Counted from the first letter of the stretch, positions 4,201 to 28,790 are shown. The stretch is 64,000 nt of DNA from Candidatus Omnitrophota bacterium (GCA_022703585.1 JAKLDJ010000007.1:25338-89337), one strand, 5' to 3'. The notes: generated by a model from the sequence alone, not told the origin. Made by a program: numbers and translations.

Positions 4201-5171
4201 CGAAATTTGTCCAACTGACCGGATACACACTTAGAGAGGCCGTGGGTCAAAATCCGCGTATTTTAAAGGGCGGAACGGAATCGGCTGAATTTTATAAACA
4301 GCTTTGGAATACTATTCTCGCCGGCAACGAATGGCGGGGAGAATTTCTTAATAAAAAGAAAAACGGAGAATTGTACTGGGAGAGCGCCTCGATTTCTCCC
4401 CTTAAAAATAATCGGGGAGAGATCACCCATTTTGTTGCCGTCAAGGAAGACATTACCGAGCGTAAAAAGCTGGAACGCATTAAGGATGATTTTACCAGTA
4501 CGGTATCTCACGAGTTGCGTACACCCCTGGCGGCCATGAAAGAAGGTATTGGCATTGTCTTGGACGGTACCGCCGGCGAGATCAGCCCGGAGCAAAAAGA
4601 ATTTCTTGGGCTCGCTAAAAGAAACGTTGATCGCCTGGGGCGGTTGATTAATGATGTGCTGGATTTCCAAAAGTTAGATTCCGGGGCGATGACATTTAAG
4701 ATACGGGATGAGGATATCAATTCTGTCATTCGGGATGTAGGGCAGATGATGATGCTTGCTGTAGCCAAGCAAAAAGGTTTGGATCTAAATTTTAATCTTG
4801 GCGAAAACCTTCCTCGGATACCGTTTGACAGGGACAAAATCATCCAGGTCTTGACGAATCTGATCAACAACGCGATTAAATTCACGGATAAAGGGAGTAT
4901 TACGGTTACCTCTTCGCTGGGGGATAACGCCGTTGAAGTCTCTGTCCGGGATACCGGTATCGGCATTAAAGAAGAAGATTTGCCGAAGCTCTTTGGAAAG
5001 TTTACCCAGCTGACCAGCGGCAGCGATAGAAAAACCGGCGGAACGGGTCTGGGGCTGGCTATTTCCAAACAAATTGTTGAATGGCACAAAGGAAAGATCT
5101 GGGCGGAGTCAAAATTTGGCGAGGGGACAACGATTCGTTTTTTCTTACCGATTGGAGAGCGGAGAACTTGA
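1293..5171 (+). CDS. Multidomain sensor histidine kinase: N-terminal polytopic membrane domain, TM-flanked CHASE domain, two PAS/PAC domains, HisKA, HATPase_c
   Basis: 1292 aa. A CHASE-like extracytoplasmic region (WEWIPAVPAEMRTEFEE...LFYYPVQYIEPFAGNEKILGYDVGSEPLRRSALEESARVG) sits between hydrophobic helices. The H-box is HELRTPLAAMKEGIGIV and the G-box is [30 protein letters not shown]. Confidence 0.85.
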   Translation: MISVFWQAQMDYVFFVYGIAFLLLGAVIWGVSKPSWSRLPWNYLAWFGFLHGANEWFDMLAVSLGDSPDFKWVRLIIMAVSFLPLVEFGRAGLKAQGISVPGQWIYIPLVALSGCGYLAGMSGLNAGCRYALGFTGGLLAGIVFLREPPRAEASPRWSLRLIGWAFLIYGFAAGLIVPKAGFFPANILNNDAFLNITGFPIQVARALCAVSAALGAWFIFGYKYDKDKGTYEWQSWFVPFALAVTLVAGFWVVNWRGQVADQEQRDRLSSQVIDIARTISSNRVNMLSFSDEDKHNPSYVRLRNQMVAYGQAMGLRSIYSMAVRGDHIVFGPESIPESSPLASAPGTIYQKPRPEDWEAFKTGKPYTVGPVADEYGTFVSAGAPVRDPHTGKIILMIGADIDATIFQTTVVRARIMALFSILIVVCIILFTLSILGWRNQLSKEQRNKLRYIEVWLTVVIGIIATVNAVYFIRDEEQRYRKAVFIQLARAQTGDIVQAFVSMRDYELGGLARFFDGSEQVEFREFQAFAGPQVRTSLVRAWEWIPAVPAEMRTEFEEGVHRQGLSDFTIFEKNADGVNIVPPERLFYYPVQYIEPFAGNEKILGYDVGSEPLRRSALEESARVGFATATEPVTLTHEMGGQKAIVVFHPVFKHVPLDFGYDVDIDTNSLQGFAAVVVNLGDMLKKTIFDSGVRTALLGPADVNLYQLKKDDTPLWIASSKTDDDQRHADKNKALLDLADTRNYVSPLFMFGKTYALVIHPKPGSIDAPVASSIFFGFIGIILTGALAYSLFSALSRAAKVEALVAEKTEELKSKELQLGAIVSNVPGAIYRCVNDVHWTMEFISSEIENISGYPVSDFIKNKVRSYASIIYPDDVTLVDRTIQDAISKEESYIIEYRIVHSSGKIRWVFEKGQPIFIGDGKLAWLDGVISDVSERRKSEEQLRHLSRAVEQSPAVVVITDRDGKIEYANPKFVQLTGYTLREAVGQNPRILKGGTESAEFYKQLWNTILAGNEWRGEFLNKKKNGELYWESASISPLKNNRGEITHFVAVKEDITERKKLERIKDDFTSTVSHELRTPLAAMKEGIGIVLDGTAGEISPEQKEFLGLAKRNVDRLGRLINDVLDFQKLDSGAMTFKIRDEDINSVIRDVGQMMMLAVAKQKGLDLNFNLGENLPRIPFDRDKIIQVLTNLINNAIKFTDKGSITVTSSLGDNAVEVSVRDTGIGIKEEDLPKLFGKFTQLTSGSDRKTGGTGLGLAISKQIVEWHKGKIWAESKFGEGTTIRFFLPIGERRT

Positions 5172-13068: not shown

Positions 13069-13076
13069 TCATAATA

Positions 13077-13160
13077 AGGGACGCTCTTTCGGTTCAATGG
13101 AGGCCTGTCCCTTTTCTAGTAAAAAGGGACACACTTTTACAGCACGAAAAGAGCGTCCCT
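13077..13160 (+). other. Nested inverted-repeat stem-loops (GGGAC-containing REP-like element)
   Basis: agggacgctcttt (about 13077-13089) pairs perfectly with aaagagcgtccct (about 13148-13160), enclosing the hairpin gtccctttt/aaaagggac (about 13107-13130). The 10-mer agggacacac recurs at about 18739. Confidence 0.55.
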
Positions 13161-13212
13161 CAATAATAGGTTGACTAAAATAGGATTTGTGTTTAAATAA
13201 GAGAAATAAATA

Positions 13213-18668: not shown

Positions 18669-18830
18669 GAGGGACAGACCCCGCCGTTACCCCGACCTGT
18701 CCCCTTCTCACGCTTGGGACAGTCCCAAGTGTGGCAGAGGGACACACCCAAGTTACGGCGGGGTCTGTCCCAGGTGTAATTTGGGGACTGTCCCAGAATT
18801 GCACCTGGAGCTGTCCCCGAAGTAAAAAGT
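18669..18830. repeat. Cluster of GGGACAG/CTGTCCC palindromic repeats (REP-like), about 160 nt
   Basis: At least seven copies of GGGAC(A/T)G or its complement, including the perfect palindromes gggacagtccc and gggactgtccc. The 17-bp inverted repeat gggacagaccccgccgt ... acggcggggtctgtccc lies here. Both strands give mirror-image ORFs (18554..18874 + and 18589..18879 -), which is symmetry rather than coding. Confidence 0.7.
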
Positions 18831-22625: not shown

Positions 22626-24083
22626 ATGCTGATATTTTTTATTTTGGGAATTCCGATTCTGCTGGCAGCTGGAGCCTTTTTCTCAAAAAGGCCCAGGGTA
22701 TTCGGAATTATTAATGTCTTTGGCTACTTAAGCATTTTATTGGCTTCAATCGTGCTTTTAAAAGATATTGCCTTTGCCGGCCACACACTTTTCTTCTTTA
22801 GTTTTCTTTATATCGATACTCTAAGCGCGTATTTTATTTTTGTTATCAGTGTGGTTAGCTTTGCCACAGCGCTTTATTCCGTCGGTTATATAGGAAAGGA
22901 TATGCAATCGGGGGCGATATCGGAAAATAAAGCAAAAATGTATTATTTGCTTTTTAATCTGTTTTGCTTTTCGATGTTTTTTGTCCCGGCGGTCAATAAT
23001 TTGGGCATGCTTTGGGTGGCTATTGAAATGACAACGCTGATCTCCGCGTTTTTGGTGGGATTTTATAACACCAAGCAATCGGTGGAAGCAGCCTGGAAAT
23101 ATATTATTATCTGCTCGGTGGGAATTATCTTCGCGCTTTTAGGCACAATCCTTTTTTCTTACGCGTTTTCGCTTGCCGGGGGCGCCAAAAGCCTTAATTG
23201 GACAGATATGGTGGCTGCGGCCGGGGGAATGGATAAAAATATCCTTAAAGTCGCCTTTATCTTTATTCTCGTCGGTTACGGGACCAAGGCGGGTTTGGCT
23301 CCCATGCACACCTGGCTGCCGGACGCGCACAGCCAGGCGGTTACCCCCATTAGCGCGCTTCTTTCCGGGGTTTTATTAAAGACCGCGATTTACGCTATTC
23401 TTAGATTCGGCATCATTGTGATTGAGGGGGTGGGATTTGGGTATTTCAGCCACCTGATGATTTTGCTGGGGTTGATCTCGCTAGGCGTATCCTGCAGCTT
23501 TATTCTGGTTCAAAAAGATTTAAAACGGCTTTTGGCCTACAGCAGCATTGAACATGTCGGAATAATTGCTATCGGCTTAGGGTTAGGCACGCCGCTCGCT
23601 TGGGGTGGCGCTTTATTGCATGTTTTTAATCATGCCGTGACTAAGTCGCTCATGTTTTTTGGCGCCGGGGATATTGTCAGCGCCTACAAAAGGCACAACA
23701 TGAAGATGATTCGCGGGGTTATAAGGGTTTTGCCCTTTGCCGGAGTAATGACGCTGGCAGGCATGTTTGCCTTAACCGGTTTTCCGCCGTTTTCCATTTT
23801 TGTCAGCGAACTCATAATCATTATCGCCGCGTTTACCAAGGGGTCTTACGTCGTGGCTGTCCTGTTTTTGCTATTTATCGCGATTATCTTCGGCGCCTTC
23901 GCCTATCAATTCGGTAAAATGCTTTTTGGCAATCTTCCCAAAGGAATGGCGAAGGCGCCGGAACCTTTAAGCGGAAAGCTGGCGTTCTTATTTTTGTTCG
24001 TTCAAATGCTGGCGGTGGGCGGTGTGGTTCTATTCATGAAGAAGGACTTATTATGGATTGTGCAGGGATTATTAACGAGATAA
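22626..24083 (+). CDS. ehrD: Ehr module subunit D: NuoM/N/HyfF-like antiporter-type membrane subunit
   Basis: 485 aa, NADH dehydrogenase M/N family (…GLAPMHTWLPDAH… motif). Confidence 0.8.
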   Translation: MLIFFILGIPILLAAGAFFSKRPRVFGIINVFGYLSILLASIVLLKDIAFAGHTLFFFSFLYIDTLSAYFIFVISVVSFATALYSVGYIGKDMQSGAISENKAKMYYLLFNLFCFSMFFVPAVNNLGMLWVAIEMTTLISAFLVGFYNTKQSVEAAWKYIIICSVGIIFALLGTILFSYAFSLAGGAKSLNWTDMVAAAGGMDKNILKVAFIFILVGYGTKAGLAPMHTWLPDAHSQAVTPISALLSGVLLKTAIYAILRFGIIVIEGVGFGYFSHLMILLGLISLGVSCSFILVQKDLKRLLAYSSIEHVGIIAIGLGLGTPLAWGGALLHVFNHAVTKSLMFFGAGDIVSAYKRHNMKMIRGVIRVLPFAGVMTLAGMFALTGFPPFSIFVSELIIIIAAFTKGSYVVAVLFLLFIAIIFGAFAYQFGKMLFGNLPKGMAKAPEPLSGKLAFLFLFVQMLAVGGVVLFMKKDLLWIVQGLLTR

Positions 24084-25642
24084 AAGCAAAATTTCCCGGT
24101 TTTTCTGTGATTAGCGCGGTGCAGAATTACCCGGATGAGATTTGCCTGTATGTCCGGCCGGAGATCTTTAAAGACACCTGTCTGGTCTTGCATAAAATTC
24201 TTTTATCTCCGGTAAAAATGCTTTTTGCCCTGGATGAACGCAAGATGGCGAATAAATTTACAGTCCACTGCGTTTTTCTCAGTGCGAAAAGCGGTCAATG
24301 GGTCACGGTTGCTATTGATGTCCCGGCCGAAAATCCCTGTTTTGATTCGTTGGCAAAAAGCATTTATTCGGCCAGCCTTTTTGAACGTGAAATTTATGAA
24401 ATGTTTGGCATCAAGCCCGAGGGGAATCCTGATTTGAGGCGGCTTCGTTTGCATGATGAGGTTTGGCCGCAGGGAAGTTTCCCTTTGCGCAAAGATTTTG
24501 CGGGCGCGCCAAAAAATATTTCAGCAGAGAATTTACCCGCCTACAAATTCTCTAAAGTCGAAGGCAACGGCATCTTTGAAGTCCCGGTTGGCCCGGTGCA
24601 CGCCGGGATCATCGGGCCGGGGCATTTTCGTTTTAGCGTTGCCGGAGAACCGATCATTAATCTGGAGATCAGGCTCGGCTTTACCCACCGGGGAGTTGAA
24701 AAACTTTTTGAAGGAAAATTTTTAACGCAAGCGCTGCGCCTCGCGGAAAGCGTTGACGGAGAATCAGCATTCGCTCATAGTCTCGCTTTTACCCAGGCCG
24801 CGGAAAAGATTGCCGGGATTTCCATTTCTCTTCAGGCGGCTTACGCCCGGGCAATATTTTTGGAGCTTGAGCGGATGTATAATCACGCCAATGATATCGG
24901 CGGCATTGCCGTTGATGTGGGTTTTAGTTTTCCGGCAGCCATTGCCTCGATCATTAAGGAATCTATTTTGCAATTGAATGAAAAGTTAACCGGCAGCCGG
25001 TATTTAAAGGGGATTAATACTGTTGGGGGAGTTTTAAGGAGCCCGGAGGAACATGAAATAAGAATGGTTTCTGGCTTTTTAAAAGAGATCAAAAAAGATT
25101 TTAACCAGCTTGCCAAAATCCTTACGACAAGCGTTTCGTTTATGGATAGGGTGGACACAACCGGCGTATTAAAGAAGAAAACCGCCGAGGACATCGGGGT
25201 TGCGGGTTTGGCAGGCCGCGCTTGCGGGATCGCTTTGGATCTAAGGAAAAATTTTGCGGGTGTTTACCACGAGGCCAAATTTAAAATGGCTGTGGAGCAA
25301 AGCGGCGATGTCCTGGCCCGGTTAAGGGTAAGGATCGCCGAATTTGAGGAATCAATGCGGTTGGTTGAGTTCTTTTTAAGTAAAATCACCCCCGGCGAAA
25401 CAGCCTTTCCTCAGCCGCAACGAAAAGAAGGAGAAGCCTTAGGTTTCGCGGAAAGCTGGAGGGGGCCGGTTTTGTATTGGCTTAAAACCGATTGTAACGG
25501 CGCAATCGAGCGCTGCAAGATCGTCGACGCCTCTTTTTGCAACTGGCAGGGCTTGTCCTACGCGGTTTTAGGAAATATTATTCCCGATTTTCCACTATGC
25601 AATAAGAGTTTTGACCTTTCGTACCCGGGTAACGACTTATAG
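24053..25642 (+). CDS. ehrL: Ehr 'large subunit': NuoC-NuoD (HycE-like) fusion lacking both Ni-Fe cysteine motifs
   Basis: The N-terminal half is NuoC-like (SLFEREIYEMFGIKPEGNPDLRRL). The C-terminal half is NuoD/HycE-like (VPVGPVHAGIIGPGHFRFSVAGEPIINLEIRLGFTHRGVEKLFEGKF). Where MbhL has ERxCGxCxxxH this protein has AESVDGESAFAHS, and the C-terminus has DASFCN instead of DPCxxCxxR. Confidence 0.8.
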   Translation: MDCAGIINEIKAKFPGFSVISAVQNYPDEICLYVRPEIFKDTCLVLHKILLSPVKMLFALDERKMANKFTVHCVFLSAKSGQWVTVAIDVPAENPCFDSLAKSIYSASLFEREIYEMFGIKPEGNPDLRRLRLHDEVWPQGSFPLRKDFAGAPKNISAENLPAYKFSKVEGNGIFEVPVGPVHAGIIGPGHFRFSVAGEPIINLEIRLGFTHRGVEKLFEGKFLTQALRLAESVDGESAFAHSLAFTQAAEKIAGISISLQAAYARAIFLELERMYNHANDIGGIAVDVGFSFPAAIASIIKESILQLNEKLTGSRYLKGINTVGGVLRSPEEHEIRMVSGFLKEIKKDFNQLAKILTTSVSFMDRVDTTGVLKKKTAEDIGVAGLAGRACGIALDLRKNFAGVYHEAKFKMAVEQSGDVLARLRVRIAEFEESMRLVEFFLSKITPGETAFPQPQRKEGEALGFAESWRGPVLYWLKTDCNGAIERCKIVDASFCNWQGLSYAVLGNIIPDFPLCNKSFDLSYPGNDL

Positions 25643-25666
25643 ATAATTAATTATGCTGGTATTTAA

Positions 25667-25747
25667 CACAGATTCTCACAGATCAAACACAGATGGCCAC
25701 AGATAAAACTATCTGTGAATATCTGTTTAGATCTGTGTCTATCTGTG
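25667..25747. repeat. Dyad-symmetric heptamer array: four CACAGAT followed by four ATCTGTG
   Basis: Reads cacagattctcacagatcaaacacagatggccacagataaaactatctgtgaatatctgtttagatctgtgtctatctgtg. It sits in a 157-nt gap between ehrL and ehrS. Confidence 0.8.
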
Positions 25748-25799
25748 CTCAATAAGAGCAAAAGTAAATCGACATTATAAACTTATAGGATTTTTTGCC

Positions 25800-26315
25800 A
25801 TGTATCGAATATTAAAATATAGAATGCTCAAAGGAATTGTCACCCGGCATATTGCGCCCGAAGCTTTGGGCGAAATCGAATCAACCGGCAAAGAGCTTAA
25901 GACTTTGATCCGCAAGAAATTCGGTAAATCCTTGCATATCCGCGAGGTCGATACTGGCTCGTGCAATGCCTGCGAATCCGAAATTATTTCGGCCAATAAT
26001 CCTATTTATGACCTGCAGCGATTTGGCATCAATTTTGTGGCGTCCCCGCGGCACGCCGATGCCCTTCTTGTGACGGGACCGGTTTCCAAGAATATGCTTT
26101 TGGCTTTAAAGAAAACCTACGACGCCATGCCGGAACCGAAATTCGTCATTACCGTCGGCGATTGCGCCTTGGATTGCGGTGTTTTTAAAGGCTCTTACTA
26201 CACCGCGGGCGCTGTCGCCCAAATCCTCCCCGTCGCCCTTCACATCCCGGGGTGCCCGCCGAGTCCCTCAGCTATCATTAAATCGCTGCTTGCATTCTTG
26301 AGGCAGCATGATTAG
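25800..26315 (+). CDS. ehrS: Ehr small subunit: NuoB / hydrogenase small-subunit-like protein with retained Fe-S cysteines
   Basis: 171 aa with Cys in GSCNACESE, VGDCALDCG and IPGCPPSP, matching the NuoB/MbhJ cluster-ligand pattern. Confidence 0.8.
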   Translation: MYRILKYRMLKGIVTRHIAPEALGEIESTGKELKTLIRKKFGKSLHIREVDTGSCNACESEIISANNPIYDLQRFGINFVASPRHADALLVTGPVSKNMLLALKKTYDAMPEPKFVITVGDCALDCGVFKGSYYTAGAVAQILPVALHIPGCPPSPSAIIKSLLAFLRQHD

Positions 26316-26319
26316 CAAG

Positions 26320-26620
26320 CTCCAATAACCAAGATACAAATCCCAAACAATATTCAATAAGTAAATTCCAATGACCAAACACGGTTTGGTTATTGGGGAT
26401 TGGGTATTGAAATTTGTTTGTATCTTGTTTCTTGGAATTTGTATCTTAACAAACCTAGGGCATAGGTTACGGTTAGGGTTAGGATGCCCGTATCGGTTAC
26501 GTTTAGCGGTTAGGTCAAAACTTTAGGCCGAATGCCGTTACCGAAAGACGATACGGGCTTCGTAACCGTTACCTTTACCGAGTAACGATACGGGCTTCGT
26601 TACCGTAACCGAAAGACTTT
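26320..26620. repeat. Repeat-dense non-coding block: imperfect palindromes, telomere-like GGTTAG hexamers, two ~25-nt direct repeats
   Basis: ccaataacc/ggttattgg; caagatacaaat with two copies of its reverse complement atttgtatctt; ggttacggttagggttagg; gcccgtatcg inverted relative to two copies of cgatacgggcttcgt(a/t)accgt(t/a)acc, flanked by ccgaaagac. No ORF support. Confidence 0.7.
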
Positions 26621-28703: not shown

Positions 28704-28790
28704 TAGCGAATAGTGAATAGTCAATGGTGAATGGTTAATGGTGAATGGTGAATAGTTAATAGTGAATAGCGGATAGCGGATAGTAAAGCG
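28704..28790. repeat. Tandem heptanucleotide repeat (consensus TGAATRG, about 12 units)
   Basis: Reads gcgaatag tgaatag tcaatgg tgaatgg ttaatgg tgaatgg tgaatag ttaatag tgaatag cggatag cggatag. Confidence 0.8.

Follow-up and report, generated by a model that had tools for sequence, protein, structure and literature searches.

The repetitive extragenic palindromic (REP) elements of E. coli stabilise the mRNA upstream of them. The intervening sequences of 23S rRNA genes are bordered by a 28-bp stem that is cut by RNase III, hold an open reading frame (ORF) in the loop, and are distributed sporadically in a manner that suggests horizontal spread, although their mode of movement is unknown (PMC4990558). 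In a review of the PD-(D/E)XK superfamily, PDDEXK_2 is entered as a 'putative transposase', and PDDEXK_3 is entered with the function 'Unknown' and with 'multiple transfers' (PMC3424549). Here we analyzed a dyad of CACAGAT heptamers at positions 25667-25747 of a 64,000-nt stretch of DNA from Candidatus Omnitrophota bacterium (GCA_022703585.1 JAKLDJ010000007.1:25338-89337; the whole stretch is called the window below). The dyad forms the core of a ~121-146-nt palindromic element that was inserted at the junction of two genes, ehrL and ehrS, and we are highly confident that it is a gene-less member of a palindromic family that crosses phyla.

In the 5′ arm of the dyad, CACAGAT starts at 25667, 25677, 25688 and 25698, with the spacers TCT, CAAA and GGC and a period of 10/11/10. 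The 3′ arm has ATCTGTG at 25711, 25731 and 25741 and ATCTGTT, with one mismatch, at 25721 (spacers AAT, TAG and TCT; period 10), and the 6-nt loop AAAACT (25705-25710) lies between the two heptamer arms. The initial annotation of this DNA had described four CACAGAT and four ATCTGTG copies; its anatomy was correct, but the dyad contains seven exact heptamers plus one near-copy rather than eight exact copies. These seven are among 11 exact heptamers in the window, whereas shuffled windows had a mean of 3.44 and none of 100 shuffles reached 11. Both arms were recovered by Tandem Repeats Finder and by a repeat finder. The palindrome extends ~20 nt beyond the arrays (25647-25767), with ~70% complementarity in the outer part by our own count, and terminal inverted repeats, a trait of miniature inverted-repeat transposable elements (MITEs), are present at 25647-25687 and 25727-25767. 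Because the 6-nt loop has no room for a gene, the window copy represents the gene-less form.

The long imperfect RNA hairpin proposed in the initial annotation was strongly predicted by RNA folding. The entire 157-nt gap between ehrL and ehrS has a predicted fold of -48.5 kcal/mol (z = -7.25), and the interval 25660-25755 one of -40.6 kcal/mol (z = -8.96). Because the spacers of the window copy are unpaired, the predicted stem consists of four helices of 7-8 bp with internal loops between them. Searching 25000-26500 with Rfam covariance models at E values up to 10 gave chance-level matches to miRNA precursors, far under the gathering scores.

Comparison with orthologous operons indicated that the hairpin is added DNA. 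In the window, ehrL and ehrS sit alongside genes for Mrp-antiporter-like subunits. The ehrL product lacks any CxxC motif, so that the NiFe ligands are missing, which fits the 'ehr' label and makes the name used in the initial annotation a reasonable one. A protein from a metagenome-assembled genome (MAG) of Candidatus Omnitrophota matches this product at 100% identity, and the next relatives are at most 72% identical. The gap between the ehrL stop (25642) and the ehrS ATG (25800), which had already been described as atypically long, is 157 nt in the window and 0-3 nt in four orthologous Omnitrophota operons. The protein ends at the junction are conserved with the orthologs (...SY[SP]GNDL* and M.[HR]IL[KR]..., the window ehrL ending in ...SYPGNDL*). 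The short ortholog gaps and the conserved protein ends together indicate that ~146-155 nt were gained in the window lineage. The identical 157-nt gap was found in three more assemblies of the species (four in all). The features of the junction are as follows.

24053-25642, + strand: ehrL, encoding a large subunit resembling a NuoC+NuoD fusion, 529 aa (Pfam Complex1_30kDa and Complex1_49kDa)
25635-25642, + strand: left copy of ACTTATAG, an 8-nt direct repeat covering the ehrL end with its TAG stop; candidate target-site duplication
25643-25780, no strand: inserted DNA, approximate extent; missing from the orthologous operons
25647-25666, + strand: outer left palindrome arm, TTAATTATGCTGGTATTTAA, A/T-rich, with ~70% pairing with 25748-25767
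25667-25704, + strand: 5′ array of four CACAGAT units, period 10/11/10
25705-25710, + strand: loop AAAACT of the gene-less form, from the sequence and the predicted fold
25711-25747, + strand: 3′ array of ATCTGTG, ATCTGTT, ATCTGTG and ATCTGTG, period 10
25748-25767, + strand: outer right palindrome arm, CTCAATAAGAGCAAAAGTAA, from the inverted repeat and the predicted fold
25781-25788, + strand: right copy of ACTTATAG, candidate target-site duplication, direct repeat
25787-25790, + strand: AGGA, Shine-Dalgarno-like by its sequence, 9 nt before the ehrS ATG and outside the hairpin
25800-26315, + strand: ehrS, encoding a NuoB-like small subunit, 171 aa (Pfam Oxidored_q6), with an N-terminus conserved with the orthologs

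The ACTTATAG pair brackets the added DNA (p ~0.02 in a shuffle test) and may be a target-site duplication, uncorroborated by other copies of the family. A second direct repeat, CAATAAGAG, had prompted the idea of a 43-nt duplication of the ehrL 3′ end, which was rejected for lack of homology in the segment that separates the two repeats (p = 0.94).

At this position, the hairpin would take the place of direct translational coupling between ehrL and ehrS, and ehrS would now be served by its own AGGA ribosome-binding site. From the predicted fold, a stable hairpin, possibly a cleavage site, is likely to stand between the ehr cistrons in the transcript, and a secondary effect on ehr processing or subunit ratio is possible. 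As the two cistrons abut or overlap in relatives, a hairpin placed between them could well alter their processing or coupling. The initial annotation went further and suggested a processing or stability element that decouples expression of the small subunit. A hairpin evolved or kept for processing or stabilising the ehr transcript would agree with the strong fold predicted between cistrons that are coupled in relatives, with the position of the ehrS AGGA outside the stem, with the sequence identity of the four assemblies, and with the established effect of E. coli REP elements on mRNA. However, the four assemblies represent the same strain-level sequence, so their identity is uninformative on selection. 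In addition, the element is missing from 4/4 orthologous operons, and the same array occurs across phyla at the loci in unrelated contexts described below, a 23S rRNA gene among them. We therefore regard an element specific to this operon as improbable, and its influence on the transcript as at most a secondary effect of the insertion.

An intrinsic terminator or attenuator between ehrL and ehrS is scarcely credible. A consensus scan flagged the innermost helix (25698-25717) as terminator-like, but this helix is the tip of the larger stem and has just 3 G-C pairs. The sequence after the full hairpin, CTCAATAAGAGC, has no U tract, no T run follows 25747 or 25767, and the stem is A/T-rich. Termination at this site would also leave ehrS with no promoter.

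To define the family operationally, we used at least 3 units per arm, a period of 10 +/- 1 bp, the core C-R-C-N-G-A-T, and convergent polarity of the arms; three to four units of ~10 bp are typical of an arm. The window copy has four units per arm, this core and convergent polarity; its neighbors are co-directional, and the element is an insertion in a short transcribed spacer, as expected of a member. When one genome per species was scanned for three spaced heptamers (CACAGAT-N3-4-CACAGAT-N3-4-CACAGAT; 596 Gb), the three-unit array was found at at least 120 loci, where ~1 was expected by chance according to our own calculation. The matches listed include Bacteroidota, Spirochaetota, Acidobacteriota, Verrucomicrobiota, Planctomycetota, Cyanobacteriota, Chloroflexota, NC10, Patescibacteria and Nitrospinota, some Proteobacteria and Actinobacteria, and two archaeal MAGs; the taxa among them include Prevotella, Bacteroides, Pedobacter, Treponema, several Acidobacteriota and heterocystous cyanobacteria. 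In the listed arrays, the unit period was nearly always exactly 10 bp. The polarity of neighboring array pairs was strongly biased, with 64 facing pairs (CACAGAT then ATCTGTG) and 5 reversed pairs.

In a typical copy, the left arm begins with aaC and has three CACAGAT units separated by gaa, and the right arm has three ATCTGTG units separated by ttc and closes with Gtt, so that the arms usually end in AAC/GTT. Pairing between the arms beyond the arrays is strong over 3 nt and fades by ~10 nt. The canonical spacers are purine-rich (GAA/GGA/AAA) and pair between arms; about one-third of the copies depart from this, including those of Patescibacteria and the window copy. Among IMG/VR contigs, 64 loci had CACAGAT arrays and 35 had CGCAGAT arrays, and no GxxExxY gene, the gene associated with the family below, was detected at these loci. 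Two copies had unusual arrangements. At locus L028 (5340-5500), a CACAGAT hairpin is nested within a longer perfect palindrome of other short repeats (CACCAAGGCACCAAGGAC), which suggests that different array types can stack. At locus L100 (791-878), in a Spirochaetales MAG, eight CACAGAT units in the same orientation have no opposing arm, which is atypical.

The breadth of this distribution bears on the other suggestion of the initial annotation, a tandem array of transcription factor-binding sites. A host factor, for example an OmpR/PhoB-type response regulator, which binds direct repeats spaced by one helical turn, could control ehrS or an operon-internal promoter from such sites, since the 10-11 bp phasing sets the units of each arm on one helix face, and the heptamer is conserved where the spacers are not. 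The orthologous operons lack the array, and the same arrays occur in dozens of phyla by unrelated genes, inside rRNA and beside tmRNA. On the + strand, no sigma-70-like promoter overlaps the element or stands between the element and ehrS, and the only match (25553-25581) is upstream, inside ehrL. Moreover, the arrays track a cassette gene and not a regulon. We consider this explanation very improbable.

The association with a gene was analyzed by all-vs-all comparison of ORFs no more than 2.5 kb from an array. A single protein family, 125-140 aa in length and present at six loci, was located between arms, and it corresponds to Pfam PDDEXK_3 (PF13366; E ~1e-41) and to NCBIfam TIGR04256, 'GxxExxY protein' (E 5e-43). 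The loop lengths of paired copies were bimodal: 51 copies had loops of 5-191 nt, 5 copies had loops of 361-466 nt, and none fell between 191 and 361 nt. All 5 copies with the long loops hold the PDDEXK_3/TIGR04256 gene, making gene-less copies ~10 times commoner than full ones (51 of 56 paired copies). No recognizable gene remnant was found in the gene-less loops, mid-sized ones included.

The reciprocal sample started from the gene. Of 80 metagenome loci picked by protein similarity alone, 64 had enough flanking sequence, and in 52 of these 64, three or more units spaced by 10 bp formed a chain on one or both sides of the gene, compared with 2 of 320 shuffles. CACAGAT itself was on both sides at 10 gene-side loci. 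Inverted arrays of 10-bp units lie on either side of nearly every sampled GxxExxY gene, with a heptamer that varies among cassettes (CGCAGAT, CACAGAT, CGCCGAT, CACGGAT and CGCAAAT) and is broadly common to both arms of one cassette. The lag-10 autocorrelation was 0.34-0.37 in the flanks, compared with 0.22 within the gene, and peaks at lags 10 and 20 were seen in the flanks only. The unit consensus near GxxExxY genes was R-A-M-C-R-C-N-G-A-T, and CACAGAT was the second commonest core (61 of 279 units). In 30 of 72 cassettes, an array unit forms an in-frame ATG (CAG ATG AAC ACA GAT GAA, read as MNTDE...), and in roughly 40% of full-length members the start codon falls within the 5′ array. When small ORFs bracketed by strong inverted repeats were collected from all loci, 44 of 53 were GxxExxY. 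The gene copies in the gene-side sample are divergent, at 50-68% identity.

Distant homologs on large plasmids have the same design with other cores, CACAGAG in Bacteroides finegoldii and CGCGAAG in Sphingomonas, and a single unit in Treponema. Cassettes are also insertions in conserved operons. In Sphingomonas parapaucimobilis, a cassette with CGCGAAG-type arms is inserted in the fabD-fabG spacer (L213, 1450-1915), and the corresponding empty site in S. paeninsulae is 32 nt (L214, about 570-610). Another cassette lies between radA and the next gene, which encodes a flavin adenine dinucleotide (FAD) protein, in Bacteroides. A different arrangement was seen on a Fusobacteria plasmid (L210, 1380-1940), where the GxxExxY gene lies between direct repeats of ~50 nt and not between inverted arrays.

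The positions of the gene-less copies were analyzed where the flanks were usable (n = 37): 21 have co-directional neighboring genes, 7 have convergent ones and 3 have divergent ones, and the remaining 6 are 'inside' long ORFs that are probably spurious. Gene-less copies are often only a few tens of nt from both neighbors. In the initial annotation, a common REP element with no positional preference had been named as the finding that would count against a local function. This applies in spirit, in that the element is common across genomes, though not within the window, where it has one copy, and a preference was in fact seen, for transcribed spacers between co-directional genes. Stable-RNA genes are also occupied. 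A Candidatus Falkowbacteria MAG has two CACAGAT hairpins within its 23S rRNA gene (L107, 797-876 and 1468-1544), one of them placing 90 nt where the model has 8 positions in domain I, and in a Patescibacteria MAG, hairpins are immediately on either side of the tmRNA gene 4667-5070 (L014, 4586-4654 and 5076-5176). On one contig, three copies have common arms, and two of them also have a homologous loop, in unrelated flanks, which points to proliferation of the gene-less form itself.

These observations also bear on whether the window copy is a solo remnant, i.e. whether a full GxxExxY cassette once occupied the ehrL-ehrS junction and later lost its gene, leaving the arms, so that the hairpin never moved in gene-less form. 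Full cassettes do lodge in such spacers, as in fabD-fabG and radA, and the window copy looks degenerate, with a mutated heptamer, unpaired spacers and non-canonical outer flanks. Against this stand the bimodal loops, the missing remnants in the mid-sized ones, and the homologous loops of gene-less copies at different sites of one contig. Gene-less copies inside the 23S rRNA gene and their ~10 to 1 excess over full copies likewise disfavor this history, which we consider unlikely compared with insertion of the hairpin as a gene-less element.

The GxxExxY protein has the features expected of a nuclease. An AlphaFold2 model (pLDDT, the predicted local distance difference test score, 92.7) adopts a minimal PD-(D/E)XK fold. 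Its best matches among PDB structures, weak but consistent, were the lambda-exonuclease-like LHK-Exo and the Cas4 protein SSO0001, together with the AddAB and RecE nuclease domains, MGME1, tRNA-splicing endonuclease and Hjc; a search of PDB sequences with the protein gave no real match. The invariant residues are E32, within the GxxExxY motif, E81-x-K83 and Q95-x3-Y99, and D71 is at least 90% conserved. Judged from established knowledge of the fold, this residue pattern is the signature expected of an active RecB/Cas4-like nuclease. The GxxExxY/PDDEXK_3 family comprises at least 7,944 clusters. It was absent from 50,697 phage records and present on 8 of 72,556 plasmids, at least five of the 8 being over 400 kb, and the protein gave no match to PHROG and PADLOC models.

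A second cargo gene was found with the same architecture. In a Hydrogenophilus MAG, the gene of a PF05635 '23S rRNA intervening sequence protein' is bracketed by arrays in the dnaK-dnaJ spacer (L089, 1240-1700, minus strand). All of the homologs looked up, at 60-81% identity on ten contigs, are in the dnaK-dnaJ spacer, and their hosts are Moraxellaceae, Chitiniphilus, Uliginosibacterium and metagenome contigs. At L314, L320, L322 and L323 (around 1140-1620), the PF05635 arms are arrays of ~8-nt units. These units vary by lineage (GGGAAAC, GTGAAA and GGGAAGG), yet the arms remain complementary, and at the four loci inspected the PF05635 GTG start is at the end of an array. PF05635 insertions between dnaK and dnaJ were observed in many Beta- and Gammaproteobacteria. 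In these, ~3-5 nt separate the pyrimidine-rich arm of the PF05635 element from the dnaJ ATG downstream of it, and no obvious ribosome-binding site is present. The array-armed cassette may represent a general design that serves two or more cargo families, and rRNA intervening sequences would be its historically noticed case.

A mechanism that would join these observations is as follows. The family would be a selfish, horizontally spreading cassette whose full members carry a gene for a ~125-aa nuclease in the loop, and the gene-less hairpins would be its miniature derivatives, analogous to MITEs or to the REP-based hairpins known as REPINs. The phased heptamers would be protein recognition sites, most plausibly for the cassette's own nuclease, whose substrate would be duplex DNA or an extruded DNA hairpin. 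Within the transcript, the two arms would pair, like those of 23S rRNA intervening sequences excised by RNase III, and this RNA pairing would allow an insertion to be tolerated in operons and rRNA with little harm. Heptamer recognition is favored over mere pairing because the core is conserved across phyla and the spacers are unpaired in about one-third of copies; the near-invariant convergent polarity likewise favors recognition. The components of this mechanism, namely the selfish cassette, heptamer recognition and arm pairing in the transcript, are proposed together only tentatively, with somewhat less than even confidence. The complete explanation, in which the observed insertion and the mechanism are blended, seems to us probable.

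Several observations weigh against this account. No GxxExxY/PDDEXK_3 gene was found in the window, which has just one copy of the hairpin and no other array of 10-bp units. In the window copy, the spacers (TCT, CAAA and GGC versus AAT, TAG and TCT) are unpaired and the flanks are TAA/CTC, not the canonical AAC/GTT; the copy may be old or decaying, and would be a poorer substrate for RNase III. The 8-nt ACTTATAG repeat is only suggestive at its p value of ~0.02, and neither a consistent target-site duplication nor a target motif was found across copies. Mismatches between arms were G.U in 93 cases and A.C in 74, and this lack of a G.U excess gives no support for selection on RNA pairing. The heptamer variant tracks the protein phylogeny weakly, the nearest neighbor being of the same type in 12 of 36 cases versus 20% by chance, which argues against fine-tuned co-evolution of protein and site. 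To our knowledge, neither a strand-transfer activity nor a way of joining DNA has been described for a 125-aa PD-(D/E)XK nuclease. Lastly, on a viral contig from IMG/VR (L303, 3464-4091), the ORF between CGCAGAT arms is not GxxExxY. It encodes 189 aa, with an array-derived N-terminus (MDADERRW) and a CxxC...CxxC segment, and has no Pfam or PHROG match; it may be a third cargo type, or the locus may hold two separate elements.

For the ehr operon, the long gap is best read as an insertion scar and not as evidence of designed regulation. More broadly, GxxExxY/PDDEXK_3 proteins acquire a first testable hypothesis, which connects them with phased heptamer arrays, inverted arms, operon spacers and gene-less derivatives. 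The arrays also yield spurious small ORFs and odd N-termini in annotations (...ICVHLC... and MNTDEHR...), which recognition of the family would clean up. A possible origin is further offered for the intervening sequences of rRNA; the question of their mobility has stood open since about 1990 (PMC4990558).

Other hairpins and repeats were observed in the window. Immediately after the ehrS stop, a long imperfect hairpin at 26316-26447 (dG -48 kcal/mol, z -6.9) is built partly of the 7-nt units TTGGGTA and TTGTATC and shows no sequence relationship to the CACAGAT dyad. A second hairpin region at 26465-26617 (dG -63.8 kcal/mol, z -5.1) has GGTTAC/GGTTAG units and a 37-nt direct repeat at 26538-26610, and the two regions together occupy the spacer between ehrS and a lipase gene. 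Strong intergenic hairpins at 18671-18788 and 13072-13165 (z -6.9 and -8.2) both have GGGAC...GTCCC stems and may represent a genome-specific REP-like family. At 28704-28784, also intergenic, the heptamer TAGTGAA is repeated in tandem, with 11.6 copies at a 7-bp period.

Published descriptions of this family were sought in the literature, whose coverage in these searches was incomplete. No match was found for 18 array sequences of 17-19 nt, and no publication was found that links GxxExxY, PDDEXK_3, PF13366 or TIGR04256 to repeats. Searches for PDDEXK proteins with palindromic or intergenic elements, and for four-helix-bundle proteins with dnaK/dnaJ, returned nothing relevant, and a paper on rRNA insertions in bacteria of the candidate phyla radiation does not mention such hairpins. 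With yet more reserve than for the mechanism, we propose that array-armed hairpin cassettes could form an undescribed class of selfish element. Such elements would carry in the loop a gene for a small protein that binds nucleic acid, either the Cas4/RecB-like GxxExxY nuclease or the PF05635 four-helix-bundle protein, with arm units evolving in concert. They would colonize operon spacers and stable-RNA genes across bacteria, and would leave gene-less hairpins behind, that of the ehr operon included. Their spread would be nuclease-based, unlike that of known transposases, and 23S rRNA intervening sequences would be the only special case to have been noticed historically.

Among known systems, 23S rRNA intervening sequences (Leptospira, Coxiella and Salmonella; ORF PF05635, 'S23p/four helix bundle protein') are among the closest to the family. 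In both, complementary ends can pair into a long stem around a loop that is empty or contains a small ORF, and both are found in transcribed DNA, where such a stem can be tolerated or cut out. Both are also distributed sporadically, in a manner suggestive of horizontal spread. Two of the CACAGAT hairpins are themselves inside a 23S gene, and the arms of the PF05635 elements in the dnaK-dnaJ spacer are also made of short repeated units. In contrast, the window copy is in an mRNA spacer between two protein genes, and full-form members carry the gene of a PD-(D/E)XK nuclease rather than that of a four-helix-bundle protein. The arms of the family are built from repeated 10-bp units, the core of which is conserved across phyla, and the predicted stem of the window copy is interrupted every 7-8 bp.

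The family also resembles the REP elements, the bacterial interspersed mosaic elements (BIMEs) and the REPINs with their REP-associated tyrosine transposases (RAYTs). In both cases, short palindromes occupy extragenic transcribed spacers and are rare between divergent genes, there are many gene-less copies for each one that encodes a protein, and inverted copies of the repeat flank the protein gene. By analogy with E. coli REP elements, the RNA hairpin may be able to affect mRNA stability. However, the flanked gene encodes a PF13366/TIGR04256 PD-(D/E)XK protein and not an HUH/Y1 RAYT transposase, so identity with REP/RAYT was rejected. A GTAG head is missing, each arm is an array of several units, and the core is common across phyla, whereas REP families are lineage-specific.

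Like MITEs, the family has inverted terminal arms, and gene-less miniatures outnumber the autonomous copies. The short motifs repeated at each end resemble the multiple transposase-binding sites of Tn7, Mu and plant En/Spm. Unlike MITEs and transposons, the family has no DDE, serine, tyrosine or HUH transposase, and its recurrent cargo is a 125-aa protein with a nuclease fold. It also differs from MITEs in having no consistent target-site duplication and in its divergent, not near-identical, gene copies. The Rpn/PDDEXK_2 proteins are a further parallel, being multi-copy PD-(D/E)XK proteins for which a role in their own spread or recombination is suspected; they are larger than GxxExxY, which belongs to a different Pfam family. 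Overall, the element in the ehr operon would fall among palindromic selfish elements, a known kind, with a fair chance of being more than that.

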